Both the position numbers and the translations under genes were made by a program. This document shows positions 6,681 through 12,458 of a stretch of DNA of 24,000 nt, piece after piece; position 1 is the stretch's first letter, and the number at the start of each line of letters is the position of its first letter. The stretch is from Porcipelethomonas ammoniilytica. Its GTDB lineage: Bacteria; Bacillota; Clostridia; Oscillospirales; Ruminococcaceae. Below the pieces are notes generated by a model. That model saw nothing but the letters and a program-made list of their open reading frames with translations, searched no databases and had not been told where the DNA came from. The stretch covers positions 70,949-94,948 of the forward strand of contig NZ_JAOQKH010000002.1 of NCBI RefSeq assembly GCF_025567485.1, given 5' to 3'.

Positions 6681-8345
6681 TCATTTTAGATTGCATATTT
6701 CCATAAATCTATTTAACGCATCTTCATTATACTGTGCATAATCAACATTCATCGGCTTTATTTTACCGTTTACAAACATGTTTATGCCGGAAAGTATTCC
6801 CTCAATATCGTCAGGCACGAGCAGTCCGCCGTGTTCTTTCATAAATCCTCTCGGACCGTCAATGTCTGTTGCAAAAACAGGAATGCCTAAAGTGTCTGCT
6901 TCAAGCAGAACCAGACCCAGTCCTTCGTATCTGGACGGCAGCATAAATAAATCGCATTTATTCAGTACAGGCATAGGATTTTCCATTGATTTGATAAGAA
7001 TAATTTCAGCTTTGCAGCTTTCGGCGTATTTCAGCGTTTCTTCGTAAAGCTCTCCTCTGCCGCCGATAATAATAAGACAGCTTTCTGAATGACTTTTATA
7101 AAATTCCTCAAAGGCGTCTATAAGACGTATATGTGCTTTTTCTGTGGAAAAGCGTCCTATTGTTATAAATTTCAGTTTTTCGGACGCAAGTAAATCCTGA
7201 AGCTGTTCCAAAGTTACATTTGATTCCGTTTCCTGCTGAAATTCTATGGGAAGACGTGATTTTTCCAGTACTCTCTCATAATTGTGGCAGTTTGGGACAA
7301 CAGTGAAATTTTCACCGTTTCCGCCGCTGATTTCCAGTGCGGAGCGGCGCATGTCCTCTGTTACAAGCGCAACAGTATCGTATTCACGGTACGCTTTTTG
7401 CAATGTTTTATAATGTTGATTTTTTCTTAAATTTATTTCCTCGGTCATATTGTTGTGCACATATATGATGCGTTTTCCCTCAAAACATCTGAACATATTT
7501 ATAACGCCGTATTCATATCCCGTAAACTGAATAGCGCAGCTGACATCTGTACTTCCGAAAAGTCTTTTCCATTCTCTTTTATAAAGGCGGTCTATACGGT
7601 TTTCAATAAAACGGTTAGAAATATTAAGTTTAAAGTAAAGTATATAGCATAAAAATTCACTTATTGTATACTGAGTTTTTCCCGACATCGGAATACAATG
7701 AAATTCATTCGGAATCTTTTTGAGATTGTCCGGAGTTTTTCTAACCGACTCTTCACGGTAAGTTATATAAAAATTATCTGAAAGGTTTTTAAGTCCGGAA
7801 AGCAGACTCAGAAGCGAAGCGGTAAGACCGTTTTGAGCAAGAGAGCCGGAGTAAATAAGTGTTCGATTTTCATTTTTATAAATACATTTTCCTTTTGGGT
7901 TGTTGCCGCTGAGAATTTTATTAACGGTTTCCGAACCGCCGTTTATAACAGTACCTTTATAAATACCGTTAAGCTGAAAGTTTTTTATTATTTCCGCTTC
8001 TGTTTTGCAGTCAGGACAGATAATGTAATCCGACATCAGAAGTGTTCTCTGCATTTTTCCGAAGAAAACGGAACTCTCATATTTGGGTAAGCAGATGATT
8101 TTTTGACCGTCTTTTTTAATAAAAAAGTCCGGAAGAACTCCGGAGGTAATTATAAATTCACAGGAAGAAAGATTTTTAAGAGACATTTTTTTGAAAATCG
8201 TAATATTTTTCAGGCAATCATTTGAAATGTCGCTTTCGCCGTACAGCAATGCAGTTTCTTTGTTTATTTCCTTTTTCAGCATACGCTGATATCGGCTTTG
8301 TAAAAATATACTTTTTAAAAGTACGGATATTGATCTTAAATTCAA
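6681..8345 (-). CDS. glycosyltransferase, GT-B fold / family 4 (TagE-like), with a long uncharacterised N-terminal region
   Basis: The C-terminal region carries an ExxxxxxxE motif (EGLGLVLLE), plus GIPVFATD and FMLPSRYEG. I prefer the in-frame TTG at 8343-8345, preceded by AAGGAG with 6-nt spacing. The ORF-track ATG at 8387 lies inside the palindrome that starts the repeat array and has no RBS. Confidence 0.75.
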   Translation of the reverse strand: MNLRSISVLLKSIFLQSRYQRMLKKEINKETALLYGESDISNDCLKNITIFKKMSLKNLSSCEFIITSGVLPDFFIKKDGQKIICLPKYESSVFFGKMQRTLLMSDYIICPDCKTEAEIIKNFQLNGIYKGTVINGGSETVNKILSGNNPKGKCIYKNENRTLIYSGSLAQNGLTASLLSLLSGLKNLSDNFYITYREESVRKTPDNLKKIPNEFHCIPMSGKTQYTISEFLCYILYFKLNISNRFIENRIDRLYKREWKRLFGSTDVSCAIQFTGYEYGVINMFRCFEGKRIIYVHNNMTEEINLRKNQHYKTLQKAYREYDTVALVTEDMRRSALEISGGNGENFTVVPNCHNYERVLEKSRLPIEFQQETESNVTLEQLQDLLASEKLKFITIGRFSTEKAHIRLIDAFEEFYKSHSESCLIIIGGRGELYEETLKYAESCKAEIILIKSMENPMPVLNKCDLFMLPSRYEGLGLVLLEADTLGIPVFATDIDGPRGFMKEHGGLLVPDDIEGILSGINMFVNGKIKPMNVDYAQYNEDALNRFMEICNLK

Positions 8346-8369
8346 ATTCTGCTCCTTTCTCCTACTTTT

Positions 8370-8690
8370 TTGAAAAAAAGTAGGCAAAAAACTTTAATAT
8401 CGTTTTTAGTATGATGATATAATGTTGTATAAGGCCCGACAGGTAAGTAAACAGAGGATTAAAGGAAAAAATTTGAAAAAAAGTAGGCAAAAAACTTTAA
8501 TATCGTTTTTAGTATGATGATATAATGTTGTATAAGGCCCGACAGGTAAGTAAACAGAGGATTAAAGGAAAAAATTTGAAAAAAAGTAGGCAAAAAATTT
8601 TAATATCGTTTTTAGTATGATGATATAATGTTGTATAAGGCTCGACAGGTAAGTAAACAGAGAATTGAAGGAAAAATTTGAAAAAAGCTT
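8370..8690 (+). repeat. tandem direct repeat array, 3 full units of 103/103/102 bp plus the start of a fourth
   Basis: Units start at 8370, 8473, 8576 and 8678 (TTGAAAAAAAGTAGGC...). Units 1 and 2 are identical by eye. Unit 3 differs by 4 substitutions and 1 single-base deletion. Each unit carries TTGAAA-17nt-TTTAAT and an exact extended -10 TGATATAAT. Confidence 0.95.
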
Positions 8691-8709
8691 ATAAAACTTT
8701 TCATGTTCA

Positions 8710-8797
8710 TTTCTTGTCTCGCAACAAGAAACGAACCAAAGAAATGCGTCCTTTACTTTCTTTCATGTGAAAGAAAGTAAAGCAAAGAAAAACTTTG
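8710..8797. other. cluster of three hairpins/palindromes inside a degenerate beta-like repeat unit
   Basis: H1 at 8710-8731 is TTTCTTGT-ctcgca-ACAAGAAA. H2 at 8751-8782 is CTTTACTTTCTTTCA-tg-TGAAAGAAAGTAAAG (15-bp perfect arms). H3 at 8783-8797 is CAAAG-aaaaa-CTTTG. The AAGAAA motif recurs throughout. Confidence 0.85.
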
Positions 8798-8885
8798 TCC
8801 GTCATTTTGATACTGAACTAATTGGTCTCCCAGTAAAAGGCAAGACTTCTCATCTAAAATTCACACCCCAGTAAAATGGCGGCAA

Positions 8886-9230
8886 TTATTTCTTAGTCTT
8901 TTCAATTATTGTATTCACGATTTCGATTCTATCTGAAAAATTTAAGGATTTGAATGCTTTGAGCATTTCTATTTCCATTTCGTCTTTCGCTTCATGTGCT
9001 ACATGATGAATGTCTGTCCTGCCAAGCAAATAATCTACAGAGCAGTCGAGATAATCGGCGATTTTTGCTAAATTATCCGCCTTTGGCATTGAAGTTTTAT
9101 AATTATCAAGAGTTCTGTCTGATATACCAAGGGTATTATACATTTCTTTTTGTTTTATATTTCTATTTTTTAAAATTTCTTTTATTCTTATGGCAACATC
9201 GTTCGATTTATATGCGTTTTCTATAATCAA
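8886..9230 (-). CDS. XRE-family helix-turn-helix transcriptional regulator (Xre-1)
   Basis: 114 aa. HTH_3-type core IKQKEMYNTLGISDRTLDNYKTSMPKADNLAKIADYLDCSVDYLLGRTD. The C-terminal AFKSLNFSDRIEIVNTIIEK is shared with the next gene. The start is TTG at 9228-9230, placed very close to AGAGGTGA, so the exact start is uncertain. Confidence 0.85.
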   Translation of the reverse strand: MIIENAYKSNDVAIRIKEILKNRNIKQKEMYNTLGISDRTLDNYKTSMPKADNLAKIADYLDCSVDYLLGRTDIHHVAHEAKDEMEIEMLKAFKSLNFSDRIEIVNTIIEKTKK

Positions 9231-9259
9231 TCACCTCTTTTTTTATAATTCATAATTAA

Positions 9260-9315
9260 ATGATAAATTTATCACTTTCGGTTGACAATTCGATAAATTT
9301 ATGGTATGATATAAT
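9260..9315. promoter_or_regulatory. divergent back-to-back promoters with overlapping -35 boxes and two GATAAATTTAT operator candidates
   Basis: Plus strand: TTGACA 9282-9287, 17 nt, TATGAT 9305-9310, which is also read as the extended -10 TGATATAAT at 9307-9315. Minus strand: TTGTCA (9288-9283), 17 nt, TATCAT (9265-9260), driving Xre-1. O1 is the perfect 14-bp palindrome TGATAAATTTATCA at 9261-9274. O2 is CGATAAATTTATGG at 9291-9304, centred 30 bp away. Confidence 0.65.
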
Positions 9316-9382
9316 AAAGTGATATTTACAAGAATATAAAATCCCATAAAAATGTACAATTAATTTTAATTATACCATCATT

Positions 9383-9422
9383 TGATTCAGACCGTCAATA
9401 GCTGAATCAGGATTTATTTTTT
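9383..9422 (+). terminator. plus-strand hairpin with U-tail, ending a short transcript from the 9282 promoter
   Basis: TGATTCAG (9383-9390) pairs with CTGAATCA (9402-9409) around an 11-nt loop ACCGTCAATAG, followed by GGATTTATTTTTT. The U-tail exists only on the plus strand. The stem overlaps the minus-strand stop codon of Xre-2 (9407-9409). Confidence 0.5.
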
Positions 9423-9754
9423 AGCTTTTCATGTATGATGTTCATGATATCTATTTTGTCTGAAAGGTTCAGTGATTTAAAAGCTATTGCAAATTCCGCT
9501 AATAGTTCGTCATGCTGCTCTATTTCATTAATATAATTATTTTCATTTATAACATGAGACTGATTGGTTCTGCCGAGTAAATAATCTACGGAGCAGTTAA
9601 AATAATCTGCTATATTTAACAGTATATCTCCCCTGGGGATTGTTCCGTTTTTCCAATGTGTAGCTGTTGCATTTGATAATTTTAACTTTTTACATACTGC
9701 ATTTGGTGTAGTACCATGTGATTCACATAATGCATAAAAGATATTCCAGAACAT
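9407..9754 (-). CDS. XRE-family helix-turn-helix transcriptional regulator (Xre-2), paralog of Xre-1
   Basis: HTH core PNAVCKKLKLSNATATHWKNGTIPRGDILLNIADYFNCSVDYLLGRTN and C-terminal AFKSLNLSDKIDIMNIIHEK. I prefer the ATG at 9752-9754, with GGAGG at 9764-9760 five nt upstream. The ORF-track start at 9766 overlaps that RBS. Confidence 0.85.
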   Translation of the reverse strand: MFWNIFYALCESHGTTPNAVCKKLKLSNATATHWKNGTIPRGDILLNIADYFNCSVDYLLGRTNQSHVINENNYINEIEQHDELLAEFAIAFKSLNLSDKIDIMNIIHEKLKNKS

Positions 9755-9809
9755 TAAAACCTCCATTTATTAGCAAAATTCTACATAAATTTAGTTCGGA
9801 ATTTGTGAA

Positions 9810-9873
9810 ATTGTACAAAACCTAATAATTTGTAGACAAAAGCGTTGACATCTACAAAAATGTAGCATATAAT
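9810..9873. promoter_or_regulatory. divergent promoter region with CTACA/TGTAG operator candidates
   Basis: Plus strand: consensus TTGACA 9845-9850, 17 nt, TATAAT 9868-9873. The palindrome CTACAAAAATGTAG (9852-9865) fills the spacer. Further half-sites are CTACA at 9781-9785 and TGTAG at 9831-9835. Minus strand: TTGTCT (9839-9834), 18 nt, TACAAT (9815-9810), driving Xre-2. Confidence 0.65.
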
Positions 9874-9999
9874 TATAGTTAGTCATTGATACGGACAAGA
9901 AAACCTAAATTATATTTCTATTTTTTACCTGATTTTAATTATAACATTAATTGGATTAGTCCGTCAATAGCTTAATTTTATAAGATCGGAGAATGAAAA

Positions 10000-10431
10000 A
10001 TGTTGACAAACAGAGAATTTGCCAGACGATTTAAACAAATAAGAATGCAAAGCGGCGCTTCGCAGATTGAAACGGCGAAAGCGATATACCGTAATGAAAA
10101 TCATATAAAGAATATTGAAAGCGGAGTGACATTACCAACAATGAGAAATTTTTTTAAATTGTGTGATTTTTTTAATGTTACTCCACAGACTTTTTTTAAG
10201 AATGAAATTAAGTCTCCTTTTCTGAGATTAAAACAGCTCAGGGAGCAGCGGGGTATTACACAAATTAAGCTTGCGTTAGACTTGAATTTAAATCAGAACA
10301 GTATAAGCAGATATGAAAGCGGAGAACGTCAGGCGGATTACTCTACCTTAGTTCTTCTGGCAGATTACTTTAATGTTTCCGTTGATTATCTTTTGAATCG
10401 TACTAACAATCCGATATTTAATGAAAAATGA
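10000..10431 (+). CDS. XRE-family regulator with two tandem HTH domains (Xre-3)
   Basis: 143 aa with GGAG 8 nt upstream. HTH-1 is FKQIRMQSGASQIETAKAIYRNENHIKNIESGVTLPTMRNFFKLCDFFNVTPQTFF. HTH-2 is LKQLREQRGITQIKLALDLNLNQNSISRYESGERQADYSTLVLLADYFNVSVDYLLNRT. Confidence 0.85.
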   Translation: MLTNREFARRFKQIRMQSGASQIETAKAIYRNENHIKNIESGVTLPTMRNFFKLCDFFNVTPQTFFKNEIKSPFLRLKQLREQRGITQIKLALDLNLNQNSISRYESGERQADYSTLVLLADYFNVSVDYLLNRTNNPIFNEK

Positions 10432-10445
10432 TAATTTTATTAAAA

Positions 10446-10993
10446 AGACTTTGCGAGTTTTCGCCCAGCCTTTTTCAATTTTTTCTTCAATCCTCTGTAT
10501 AATTACCTGTCGAGCCTTATAAAAATCAAATCATCATACTAAAGACGAAATTAAAGTTTTTTTGCTTACTTTTTTTCAAAATTTTTTCTTCATTTCTCTG
10601 CAAAGTAACTTTGCGAGAGTTTATAAAGTGTTTGAAGTTGATGAAATCCGGCATAAAAGTTTTCGCCCAGCCTTTTTCAATTTTTTTCTTCAATCCTCTG
10701 TTTACTTACCTGTCGAGCCTTATAAAAATCAAATTATCATACTAAAGACGATATTAAAGTTTTTTGCTTACTTTTTTTAAAATTTTTTCTTCATTTCTCT
10801 GCAAAGTAACTTTGCGAGAGTTTAGAAAGTGTTTGAAGTTGATGAAATCCGGCATAAAAGTTTTCGCCCAGCCTTTTTCAATTTTTTTCTTCAATCCTCT
10901 GTTTACTTACCTGTCGAGCCTTATAAAAATCAAATCATCATACTAAAGACGATATTAAAGTTTTTTGCTTACTTTTTTTCAAAAAAGTAAGCG
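10446..10993 (-). repeat. composite tandem repeat array (period 202/201 bp) in inverted orientation relative to 8370-8690
   Basis: GCTTAC landmarks fall at 10564, 10766 and 10967. Each ~202-bp unit consists of an alpha subunit and a beta subunit. Alpha is the reverse complement of the left 103-bp unit, roughly 85-88% identical by eye. Beta is a diverged sister sharing the TTGAAAAA...AAAAC...TTTATAA...GAAGAAAAA framework. The innermost beta (10446-10470) has an internal deletion of ~48 bp. Confidence 0.93.
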
Positions 10994-10994
10994 G

Positions 10995-11023
10995 TTGACA
11001 AAAAGGAAGAATCTGAGTATAAT
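10995..11023 (+). promoter_or_regulatory. consensus sigma-A promoter of the cysE-cysS operon
   Basis: TTGACA 10995-11000, 17-nt spacer, TATAAT 11018-11023. It lies directly after the terminal palindrome of the right repeat array. Confidence 0.8.
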
Positions 11024-11029
11024 ATAGTA

Positions 11030-11272
11030 TAGTTATATAATTAAAGACGTAGCAGTCAGAGTAGCCTTTTCGGACGCATTGCAGAGAGTTCTGTATGGGT
11101 GTGAGCAGAATATGCGAGAAAATGTGAAGTGCGGCTGTCAGTTCGGGGCAGGAACGGAATTCTTTCTGAGTATTGCTCTGCGTTTTTCCTCGTTACGGAA
11201 ATCAAGCTATAAATTAAGAGTGGAACCGCGGACTATCCGCCTCTTGACCTTTGCGGGCAGGAGGCTTTTTTT
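11030..11272 (+). promoter_or_regulatory. T-box riboswitch leader, probably cysteine-specific
   Basis: AG-bay AGAGAG at 11083-11088 and distal-loop-like UGGGUGUGAGC at 11096-11106. The T-box sequence AAATTAAGAGTGGAACCGCG at 11211-11230 compares with the consensus AAUUAGGGUGGUACCGCG. The terminator is GCCTCTTGACC / GGGCAGGAGGC (11239-11265) followed by 7 T. The candidate specifier is UGC at 11130-11132, just 5' of the Stem I closing GGCU. Downstream genes are cysE and cysS. Confidence 0.85.
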
Positions 11273-11305: not shown

Positions 11306-11947
11306 TTGTTTAAACAGTTGAGAGAAGACATTGCTCTCGTAAAAGAACGTGATCCTGCGGCAAGAAGTTCGTTTGAAATATGGCTGACCTATTCTGGACT
11401 TCATGCTGTTCACAGTTACAGACGGGCTCACTGGTTCTATAAGAAAAAGATGTTTACAATAGCCAGAATCATTTCGCAGTTTGCAAGATTCCGGACAGGA
11501 ATAGAAATTCATCCGGGCGCTAAAATAGGAAAAGGACTTTTTATAGATCACGGTATGGGAGTTGTAATAGGCGAAACTGCCGAGATCGGCGACAACTGCC
11601 TTATATATCAGGGAGTGACCCTTGGAGGTACGGGCAAGGAAAAGGGCAAAAGACATCCTACCTTGGGAGACAATGTAATGGTAGGGGCAGGTGCAAAAGT
11701 TTTAGGACCGTTTAAAATAGGAAACAATGTTAAAATTGCTGCAGGAGCCGTAGTGCTTGAAGCTATTCCCGATAACTGTACCGCAGCGGGAGTTCCGGCA
11801 AGAGTTGTAAGAAACAATGGCGCTAAGGTATGCAAGGAGCTTGATCAGATCCATATTCCCGACCCTGTAGCGCAGGAAATGTGTTCTATGTATATGAAGA
11901 TTGAAAAGCTGCAAAAGGAAGTGGAAAAGCTTGAAGCTGAAAGCTGA
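11306..11947 (+). CDS. cysE: serine O-acetyltransferase
   Basis: 213 aa with a TTG start at 11306. It has the N-terminal SAT helical domain ([28 protein letters not shown]) and left-handed beta-helix hexapeptide repeats ([41 protein letters not shown]). Confidence 0.92.
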
Positions 11948-11975
11948 TTGGAAGTTTCCGAAGATTCATATAGGA

Positions 11976-12458
11976 ATGCGTATCTGGAAAACGGTAATAG
12001 CTGTATTTATATGTGCTGTTTTGGGAATGATCTTTAATATCCATCCATTTTACAGTATGATTGCGGCGATTTTATGTATGCAGGCAAATACCAGCGAAAG
12101 TATTAAAAAAGGCGTGGTAAGATGCGTGGGTACTTTTATCGGAGGAATGGCGGCGGTATTGGTACTGCTGATAATCGATTTTACTCCGCTTGTGCCGTTT
12201 TCTTTTTTATATTATATTTTAATATCGCTTTGTATTGCACCGGTCATTTATCTCACGGTTTTATTAAACCGTGAGTCCAGTGCATATATATCCTGTGTGG
12301 TATTTTTAAGTATCGTTCTATCTCATTTTGACTTTGAGAATCATTATCTTTTTGCTCTTCAGCGTATGCTGGAAACTGTTGCAGGTATATTTACGGCTGT
12401 AGCTGTTAACAAAATTATAAGAAATCAAGATAATAAACAGGAAAGAAAGGAATCTTGA
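11976..12458 (+). CDS. small integral membrane protein, FUSC / aromatic-acid-exporter-like (ArAE_1-like N-terminal domain)
   Basis: About 160 aa from ATG 11976 (MRIWKTVIAVFICAVLG...). The ORF-track start at 11901 overlaps cysE by 47 nt and is unlikely. There are 4-5 hydrophobic helices. The RIWKTxIAxF...MQ...S...G..R..GT.IG pattern resembles ArAE_1/FUSC proteins. The RBS is weak. Confidence 0.6.
   Translation: MRIWKTVIAVFICAVLGMIFNIHPFYSMIAAILCMQANTSESIKKGVVRCVGTFIGGMAAVLVLLIIDFTPLVPFSFLYYILISLCIAPVIYLTVLLNRESSAYISCVVFLSIVLSHFDFENHYLFALQRMLETVAGIFTAVAVNKIIRNQDNKQERKES

Follow-up and report, generated by a model that had tools for sequence, protein, structure and literature searches.

Two inverted repeat arrays enclose an orphan repressor cassette

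The DNA considered here is a 24,000-nt stretch of the Porcipelethomonas ammoniilytica genome (contig NZ_JAOQKH010000002.1, positions 70,949 to 94,948; hereafter the window), in which two arrays of ~100-bp tandem repeats, arranged as mirror images, enclose three small genes for XRE-type helix-turn-helix (HTH) regulators. The arrays are flanked on the left by the GT4 and YfhO genes of a cell envelope glycosylation operon and on the right by a T-box leader, cysE, and cysS, a setting that had been correctly recognized in an earlier note made from the sequence alone. Exact protein matches assign the window to P. ammoniilytica, family Oscillospiraceae. We found that such arrays are polar, capped, and hypervariable and that those of the window point their tails at an orphan, strain-variable CI/Cro-like cassette. 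In our estimation, with a probability of about 60%, both are regular members of a hitherto undescribed family of polar, capped, minisatellite-like interspersed repeats with ~100-bp units, comparable to the mycobacterial interspersed repetitive units (MIRUs) and the BOX elements. This family occupies intergenic regions of P. ammoniilytica and closely related gut Oscillospiraceae.

Tandem Repeats Finder delineated the left array at 8369-8686 (period 103, 3.1 copies, 97% matches, score 601) and the right array at 10456-10984 (period 201, 2.6 copies, 96% matches, score 1000). We orient the unit from TTGAAAAAAAG, on the head side, to ATTGAAGAAAAAA, on the tail side. The left array is built of alpha units, and the right array interleaves alpha units that are the reverse complement of the left ones (88-92% over arms of 55-65 nt; e.g., 8363-8426 with 10926-10989, 64 nt, 92% complementary) with a sister unit, beta, which aligns to alpha end to end as a full-length homologue. 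Six copies of the 19-nt core TTACCTGTCGRGCCTTATA are present in the window (none in 100 shuffles), all of them inside the two arrays, to which further unit motifs are likewise restricted within the window. The tandem repeat analysis, the inverted arms, and the 19-nt core thus bear out the original description of mirror-image ~103-bp arrays bracketing three XRE genes, including the alternation of alpha and beta on the right.

The earlier description of the inner ends of the arrays needs correction. The innermost unit on both sides was taken to be a degenerate beta, which on the left formed a degenerate fourth unit. On the right side, the innermost unit is a beta with an internal deletion; on the left side, only ~28 nt are similar to the head of beta, and the rest (~8700-8800) belongs to a distinct module, delta. 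Beyond these ~28 nt, delta contains two strong 14-bp hairpins (8710-8731 and 8751-8782) and folds at -40.5 kcal/mol (z score, -6.7). Modules with the same pair of long A/U-rich hairpins recur at array tails and next to the 3' ends of XRE genes in L016, L022, L024, L043, and L046 (loci other than the window are cited by such labels). The outer ends are formed by palindromic caps (Table 1), both of which had been noticed previously and fold at -10 to -14 kcal/mol (z scores, -2.6 to -3.5). In agreement with the earlier reading, the 21 large open reading frames (ORFs) of the window that were scanned include no gene for an integrase, transposase, or recombinase and none of phage type.

A dispersed and hypervariable repeat family

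A profile search with nhmmer covering 131 sampled loci (861 kb) recovered 455 units in 191 arrays of one to seven units each; i.e., the ~100-bp tandem units are present at many dispersed intergenic loci, as is typical of interspersed minisatellites. A degenerate pattern combining alpha and beta matched at least 120 metagenome stretches, and among the matches listed, the records that name their source are human gut assemblies. This pattern had no match in viral contigs, and BLAST searches of the unit against phage and plasmid collections retrieved nothing similar. Exact matches to the 19-mer core were found in six contigs, frequently at their ends, of one mouse gut Oscillospiraceae metagenome-assembled genome (MAG); five hits elsewhere, to one Candidatus Zipacnadia and four Bacteroidales-type MAGs, extend over only 19-27 nt and are apparently due to chance. 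The same exact scan of genome contigs returned no P. ammoniilytica representative genome, though the 19-mer is present in 10/10 strain contigs. Arrays other than those used as seeds occur at ~0.5 per 10 kb, a density that extrapolates to roughly 100 arrays per 2-Mb genome. A search of the literature on these repeats, or on repeats in Porcipelethomonas, retrieved no description. Given that the unit is a common dispersed intergenic repeat, the 2.6-kb module of the window is not a one-off island.

The genes on the head side of the arrays are mainly housekeeping genes, such as polA, tsaD, dnaA, gyrB, typA, and metG. In the dnaA, yaaA-recF, gyrB cluster (L016, L046, L084, L103, and L122), arrays fill successive intergenic regions and are all codirectional with the genes. 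Many metagenome contigs end in units, and in L138 and L140 (~2430-2630), gaps of N lie inside the left array. As contig ends and scaffold gaps fall in arrays, the repeats break short-read assemblies.

The variability of the arrays is most evident in 10 contigs, one of 1.86 Mb and two from NCBI assemblies, that encode an HTH3 protein (the rightmost XRE regulator of the window) identical (100%) to that of the window. In these strains, the right array reads, with a for alpha and b for beta, a, bb, abb, aba, abab, babab, or bababab (one to seven units), compared with ababa in the window, and the alpha units of the left array number one to three. More generally, 97 of the 125 arrays for which an orthologous site is available differ from it in length by at least 80 bp, as variable-number tandem repeats (VNTRs) do. 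The variation in unit number that the earlier note had suggested looking for was found. None of these 125 sites is empty; the single apparent case proved to be an artifact of an N gap. The possibility that the arrays are an assembly artifact, raised in the earlier note, is dismissed by their recurrence in 10 independent assemblies, including the 1.86-Mb contig, and in a second species, and alternative cap junctions (see below) cannot result from assembly collapse. The second species, a sister species whose CysS is 94% identical, is represented by L005, a contig of the mouse gut MAG; its orthologous GT4/cysE locus has fewer units than the window, in the order cap-alpha-beta, two XRE genes, beta-cap.

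Anatomy of the unit and of the head cap

An alignment of 372 distinct copies revealed a non-palindromic unit of ~100 bp and ~70% A+T, with the conserved blocks TTGAAAAAAAG, AAAACTTTTAT..CG, AA..CTCG..A.GT, and AAGAAAAAA separated by variable stretches. The modules of the family, namely the units of alpha, beta, and gamma type, delta, and the caps, are combined in differing orders. A role of the unit as a structured small RNA or riboswitch-like element was rejected, since RNAalifold on 68 representatives found no consensus fold in either orientation; no Rfam family matches the units at gathering or E-value thresholds. A conserved peptide was also rejected: the candidates (e.g., MKKSRQKTLISFLV, MKKKIEKGWAK..., and the F/L-rich ORFs of the outward strand) vary in frame and length between copies, because indels in the A runs shift the frame between subtypes and the period, 103 bp, is not divisible by 3. 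Comparisons with CodY boxes, Spo0A boxes, and motifs of sporulation sigma factors were dropped, the resemblance to the unit being weak and judged by eye.

The cap, a palindrome with arms of at least 10 nt, is found at 167/193 array heads (87%), its outer arm being the reverse complement of the first 10-14 nt of the outermost unit, and at internal unit starts the palindrome mostly reaches 3-6 nt. The G+C part of the stem falls into at least seven classes, including CTTAC/GTAAG, CCAGCC/GGCTGG, CCTAC/GTAGG, TTCCGC/GCGGAA, and CAAGC/GCTTG. Three base pairs are altered on both sides in 12-21 of the 44 distinct caps, and the covariation score of 0.266 exceeds the value for shuffles (0.121 ± 0.013; none of 500 reaches it) and for slid controls (≤0.097). 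The stem also covaries with the unit subtype, as is best illustrated at the cysE site, where a beta-type cap, CCAGCCTTTTTCAAAAGGCTGG, replaces the alpha-type cap when beta is the outermost unit. That the cap follows the outermost unit at one and the same site indicates that its outer arm is a part of the element, not of the host flank. An intrinsic terminator can be rejected as the identity of the cap, the stem being followed by no U tract on either strand and a terminator scan finding none in the arrays. At two loci (L052 and L081, with heads near 8446 and 891, respectively), a solo beta-type cap, CCAGCCTTTTGAAAAAGGCT, stands directly beside an alpha-type cap; caps can accordingly exist without a unit.

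Placement of the arrays relative to genes

The polarity of the arrays extends to their neighbors. The gene on the tail side is directed at the tail in 102 cases versus 52, and that on the head side is directed away from the head in 97 and toward it in 69. Wherever two arrays share an intergenic region, they are always arranged tail to tail with the caps outward. Among 169 capped heads, 38 have a Shine-Dalgarno sequence (typically AGAAAGGAG) and start codon within 0-3 nt, corresponding to ~11 genes including GT4 of the window, and 28 have a TTGACA -35 box within 8 nt, corresponding to cysE and three or four other promoters. We also observed double-capped composites without cargo in L095 (10661-10930) and L024 (414-1035), in which inverted units are joined tail to tail, so that they resemble the window module minus its XRE genes.

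Wherever a Shine-Dalgarno sequence follows the cap, a promoter cannot be accommodated outside the array; that of GT4, 2 nt from the left cap, leaves the gene no space for its own promoter. L030 has divergent genes at distances of 9 and 40 nt from the two ends of its array, and typA has a comparable arrangement in L022; with the opposite neighbor divergent in both, the start of transcription must be within the array. Promoter-like sites are carried by some unit subtypes of these two loci, and in the window each left alpha unit has one, TTAATA-18-TGaTATAAT, directed inward. A conserved sigma-A promoter in every unit is not supported, as such sites are restricted to the left alpha and gamma subtypes and vary in direction.

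In the RNA read outward from the arrays, base pairing is predicted between a conserved U run on the 5' side of the cap and the Shine-Dalgarno sequence AGAAAGGAG for 17 of 19 distinct heads of the Shine-Dalgarno type, corresponding to ~11 genes, with a mean pairing probability of ~0.7 versus ~0.4 when the upstream 16 nt are shuffled; as an in silico result on sequence rich in U and purines, it is best taken as a lead. The heads concerned are those of the window (8343-8384) and of L014, L016, L022, L030, L038, L045, L053, L058, L095, and L103. According to the folding model, the pairing would extend the cap stem in a manner reminiscent of fourU RNA thermometers.

Association with XRE genes and organization of the cassette

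The arrays are preferentially associated with small XRE genes. Of 152 assessable tails, 36 lie ≤300 nt (median, 17 nt) from the 3' end of such a gene, and no head does. XRE genes make up 13-16% of the ORFs within 1.5 kb of an array versus 3-4% farther away (odds ratio, 4.3, from counts that include strain duplicates), and the proteins encoded beside arrays fall into 14 distinct XRE proteins when clustered at 90% identity. The layout of array, XRE genes, and inverted array recurs at at least eight sites (L005, L029, L031, L041, L042, L080, L083, and the window). A truncation point of the tail unit specific to XRE neighbors was sought, and none proved particular to them. Hence, of the alternative put forward in the earlier note, namely a common dispersed intergenic repeat with no preferred association with XRE genes, the first half is correct and the second is not.

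In the window, only three genes of the HTH_3/XRE type are found between the arrays, laid out as two paralogous modules with one pair of face-to-face promoters apiece (Table 1). The transcripts from the facing promoters in each switch region would overlap by ~45-50 nt, and the candidate operators differ between the two regions: palindromes TGATAAATTTATCA (9261-9274) and GATAAATTTAT (9292-9302) in the first and CTACA-N4-TGTAG (9852-9865) in the second. HTH3 scores 83.5 bits against the NCBIfam model of the RstR family (cutoff, 80); weaker DicA and ImmR-like matches were found as well. By their sequences, the XRE proteins are best described as generic phage repressor-like.

The cassette is strain variable. 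HTH3 is 100% identical in many strains, four of which (L132, L135, L137, and L139; 2736-3369) have, in place of HTH1, two divergent XRE genes encoding 72 and 73 aa, with breakpoints where the alpha array ends (8687) and at a duplicated promoter motif (9376). A third variant, with a pair of 92 and 76 aa, is found in L019 and L055. The orientation of the cassette is the same in each of the 17 contigs spanning the locus, with no instance of inversion.

Both flanking operons have their start signals immediately outside the caps. The GT4 gene is predicted to encode 554 aa in the strain contigs. The T-box leader of cysE scores 83.4 bits, below the Rfam gathering score of 93, and was missed by a default scan. 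Between cysE and cysS, a gene for a membrane protein of 175-185 aa of the FUSC/ArAE family (11901-12458) overlaps the end of cysE. The remaining large ORFs scanned in the window code for ordinary metabolic or enzymatic proteins, except for one with no Pfam match.

Table 1. Positions of the repeat arrays, the enclosed cassette, and adjacent start signals in the window
Feature	Coordinates	Strand	Description
GT4 start signals	8343-8358	-	TTG start codon 8345-8343; Shine-Dalgarno AAAGGAG 8358-8352; read from sequence
Left head cap	8361-8384		Palindrome CCTACTTTTTT-G-AAAAAAAGTAGG
Left array	8370-8682	+	Three alpha units, 8370-8473, 8473-8576, and 8576-8682; head left, tail right
Delta module	8678-8885	-	3' flank of HTH1; repeated at other array tails too
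HTH1	8886-9230	-	114-aa XRE/RstR-like repressor
Switch region 1	9231-9406		Face-to-face promoters, plus 9282-9310 and minus 9398-9369
HTH2	9407-9766	-	115-119-aa XRE protein, paralogue of HTH1
Switch region 2	9767-9999		Face-to-face promoters, plus 9845-9873 (12/12 consensus) and minus 9967-9938
HTH3	10000-10431	+	143 aa, two HTH_3 domains
Right array	10446-10982	-	From the tail outward: truncated beta ~10446-10470, alpha 10475-10579, beta 10583-10673
Right array, outer part		-	Alpha 10676-10781, beta 10784-10874, alpha 10877-10982
Right head cap	10967-10992		Palindrome GCTTACTTTTTTT-C-AAAAAAGTAAGC; 2 nt upstream of the cysE -35 box
cysE promoter	10995-11023	+	TTGACA-17-TATAAT; neighboring operon, outside the repeat
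T-box leader of cysE	11041-11247	+	Neighboring operon, outside the repeat

Alternative explanations for the arrays

The layout with caps outward and tails inward around XRE genes at at least eight sites could also be produced by a nonautonomous composite resembling a foldback element or a MITE (a miniature transposable element with inverted repeats) and consisting of a cap, units, XRE cargo, inverted units, and a second cap, moved by an enzyme supplied in trans. The cargo-free double-capped arrays of L095 and L024 and the invariably tail-to-tail arrangement of paired arrays would fit such an element, and the presence of ~100 sites per genome demands some mobility. Against this, the caps are not flanked by target site duplications, none of the 125 comparable sites is empty, no transposase or recombinase gene lies in the window or beside the arrays, the unit was not found in the viral, phage, and plasmid collections, and most arrays are single-capped and beside housekeeping genes; we therefore consider a mobile composite unlikely. 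Another suggestion of the earlier note, an inversion-prone regulatory island, would have the inverted arrays (89-92% identical over ~100 bp around a regulatory cassette) mediate inversion of the XRE genes as a form of phase variation. The uniform orientation in 17/17 contigs and the absence of an invertase or recombinase gene from the window run counter to it, and array polarity at many loci accounts for the inverted layout. Invertible-switch and artifact readings are effectively excluded.

Two other explanations assign the repeats a regulatory function. The conserved blocks (TTGAAAAAAAG, AAAACTTTTAT..CG, and CTCG..A.GT) or the caps might be operators for the XRE repressors or a global regulator, through which operons are wired to the switch. 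The strong conservation of blocks between variable spacers with no RNA structure, a unit length of ~103 bp or about 10 helical turns, the position of the palindromic caps at the place of an UP element or next to a -35 box, and the enrichment of XRE genes beside arrays are all compatible with protein binding. This proposal is slightly more doubtful than that of a mobile composite, as the switch palindromes (GATAAATTTATC and CTACA-N4-TGTAG) are unlike the unit motifs, which are themselves absent from the switch regions, ~75% of the arrays lack a neighboring XRE gene, different cap types at cysE are found among strains with identical HTH3, and the stem covariation fits a hairpin better than a fixed operator. 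Alternatively, the arrays might be portable modules of promoter and 5' untranslated region, with the -10-like ATAAAAGT just upstream of the cap and transcripts that start at the cap and tune the downstream gene. The most conserved block indeed lies 6-10 nt upstream of the cap, caps are flush with the Shine-Dalgarno sequences of ~11 genes, the divergent cases L030 and L022 leave no space for an external promoter, and most distinct heads (17/19) have a predicted pairing between the U run and the Shine-Dalgarno sequence. We nevertheless regard this as improbable, since there is no conserved -35 box and the -10-like hexamer does not end in the canonical T, 69 heads face gene 3' ends, 28 lie upstream of a complete promoter and hence outside the mRNA, and a simple consensus scan found no outward promoter in the arrays of the window. 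Among the options in the earlier note, a member or relic of a small mobile or repetitive element and modules of promoters or binding sites are still tenable.

A model for the arrays and their possible significance

The proposal that the arrays belong to a capped, minisatellite-like interspersed repeat family offers an account of the locus. The mirror symmetry would follow from array polarity, as the cassette is placed between the divergent GT4-YfhO and cysE-cysS operons with the tails of both arrays facing it. Changes in array length could come about by slipped-strand mispairing or unequal recombination, and the dispersed repeats, along with the duplicated switch DNA, may supply the homology for the swapping of XRE cassettes. 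Transcription leaving the cassette, or begun inside some units, might run through the array into the flanking gene, where a hairpin of cap and U run beside or including the Shine-Dalgarno sequence could stabilize the mRNA or modulate its translation. The cap could alternatively act at the level of DNA, as an A/T-tract element next to a -35 box.

Several observations weigh against this account. No mechanism of spread was found, with neither empty sites nor target site duplications nor transposases in the window and the sampled loci. The enrichment next to XRE genes is not explained by a purely neutral repeat, and its p value is optimistic, since strain duplicates among the counts inflate such values. 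The orientation rules are biases and not laws, as the 97 to 69 split at heads makes plain, and promoter-like sites are present in some subtypes only and in either direction. Some copy numbers may reflect collapse in short-read assemblies, N gaps being present inside arrays in two scaffolds, and the covariation of the cap could stem from a templated DNA mechanism rather than selection for a hairpin. Any cis-regulatory role is inferred only.

At its most far-reaching, the association could represent a mobile regulatory wiring, in which the capped repeats are portable leaders that couple operons, such as the promoterless GT4-YfhO, to bistable switches, with strains swapping switches by recombination between repeats and copy number setting the strength of the coupling. 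The leader would combine internal or read-through transcription with a hairpin of cap and U run sequestering the Shine-Dalgarno sequence, by analogy with fourU elements. We offer this as a speculation with low odds; if true, it would constitute a repeat-mediated, strain-variable control of phase or heterogeneity in a gut commensal. Even short of this, what looked like a unique mirror-symmetric island turns out to illustrate a general rule, that of polar, capped, hypervariable arrays in many intergenic regions of a prevalent human gut genus. The arrays could serve as VNTR markers for tracking Porcipelethomonas strains. Furthermore, the placement of the cap, its predicted pairing, and the XRE enrichment provide testable hypotheses on how noncoding repeats and small repressors might together shape the expression of neighboring operons, here that for envelope glycosylation.

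Comparison with known systems

Several well-known kinds of arrays can be set aside. A clustered regularly interspaced short palindromic repeat (CRISPR) array is rejected, as the units abut without spacers and the window has no cas genes, and an integron cassette array is rejected, as the window has no integrase and the arrays are mutually inverted. ToxI-like RNAs of type III toxin-antitoxin systems consist of ~36-nt tandem repeats upstream of an endoribonuclease toxin gene; a system of this type is inconsistent with the ~100-bp unit and the absence of a toxin gene from the window.

The cassette itself resembles the CI/Cro-like immunity switches that temperate phages and other mobile elements possess, typified by RstR, ImmR, and DicA, in having small XRE repressors (Pfam HTH_3, RstR family), divergent pairs, face-to-face, overlapping promoters, and palindromic operators. 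Unlike these, it has no attached phage or mobile genes, being flanked by GT4/YfhO and cysE/cysS with housekeeping genes in the rest of the window, and it is multicopy, strain variable, and bracketed by repeats.

The statement that the arrays match no known repeat type is too strong, given that the family behaves like the interspersed repeats of the MIRU, BOX, and bacterial interspersed mosaic element (BIME) kinds. Like MIRUs, which are said to have been described by Supply et al. in 1997, it comprises tandem units of ~50-100 bp at many intergenic sites, often between codirectional genes, with VNTR behavior, and it fills the gap from a stop codon to the start signals of the next gene. In contrast to the family, whose units have no conserved ORF, MIRUs contain small ORFs overlapping the stop and start codons of the genes on either side, and they are not known to share with it a terminal palindromic cap, the alternation of alpha and beta, the XRE link, or sequence similarity. 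The BOX elements of Streptococcus pneumoniae, with boxA, boxB repeated n times, and boxC, are likewise modular, with a middle module of variable number, as in the present arrays, and are present at ~100 sites. BOX elements can affect the expression of neighboring genes. They differ from the family in taxon and sequence and in having two distinct terminal modules and a predicted RNA fold of the whole element, whereas the arrays are capped at a single end and only the cap is structured. Repetitive extragenic palindromes (REPs), BIMEs, and REPINs of Proteobacteria, reviewed in PMC3184786, are also palindromic extragenic elements that form mosaics with inverted orientation at operon ends. However, REP sequences are GC-rich palindromes of 20-40 bp linked to REP-associated tyrosine transposases (RAYTs), whereas in the family the palindrome is only a cap, with an A/T center, on a nonpalindromic 100-bp unit, and no RAYT was seen in the window or the sampled loci.

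BrickBuilt of Porphyromonas gingivalis, as outlined in PMC4596501, is a MITE that contains a minisatellite and has terminal inverted repeats, and it is comparable to the family as a tandem array within a small noncoding dispersed element. The family differs in that no target site duplication, short terminal inverted repeat, or parent insertion sequence was found for it in the window and the sampled loci. As for the hallmarks of MITEs more generally, the double-capped composites (the window, L095, and L024) have long inverted arms, but most arrays are single-ended, and neither target site duplication nor presence/absence polymorphism was observed. In sum, three features of the family are not known to have been described for MIRU, BOX, or REP elements: a cap set flush with a -35 box or Shine-Dalgarno sequence, a U run predicted to pair with the latter, and the enrichment of the family at orphan, strain-variable XRE cassettes. 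Nor is the single, subtype-matched cap known from MIRUs, BOX elements, or MITEs.

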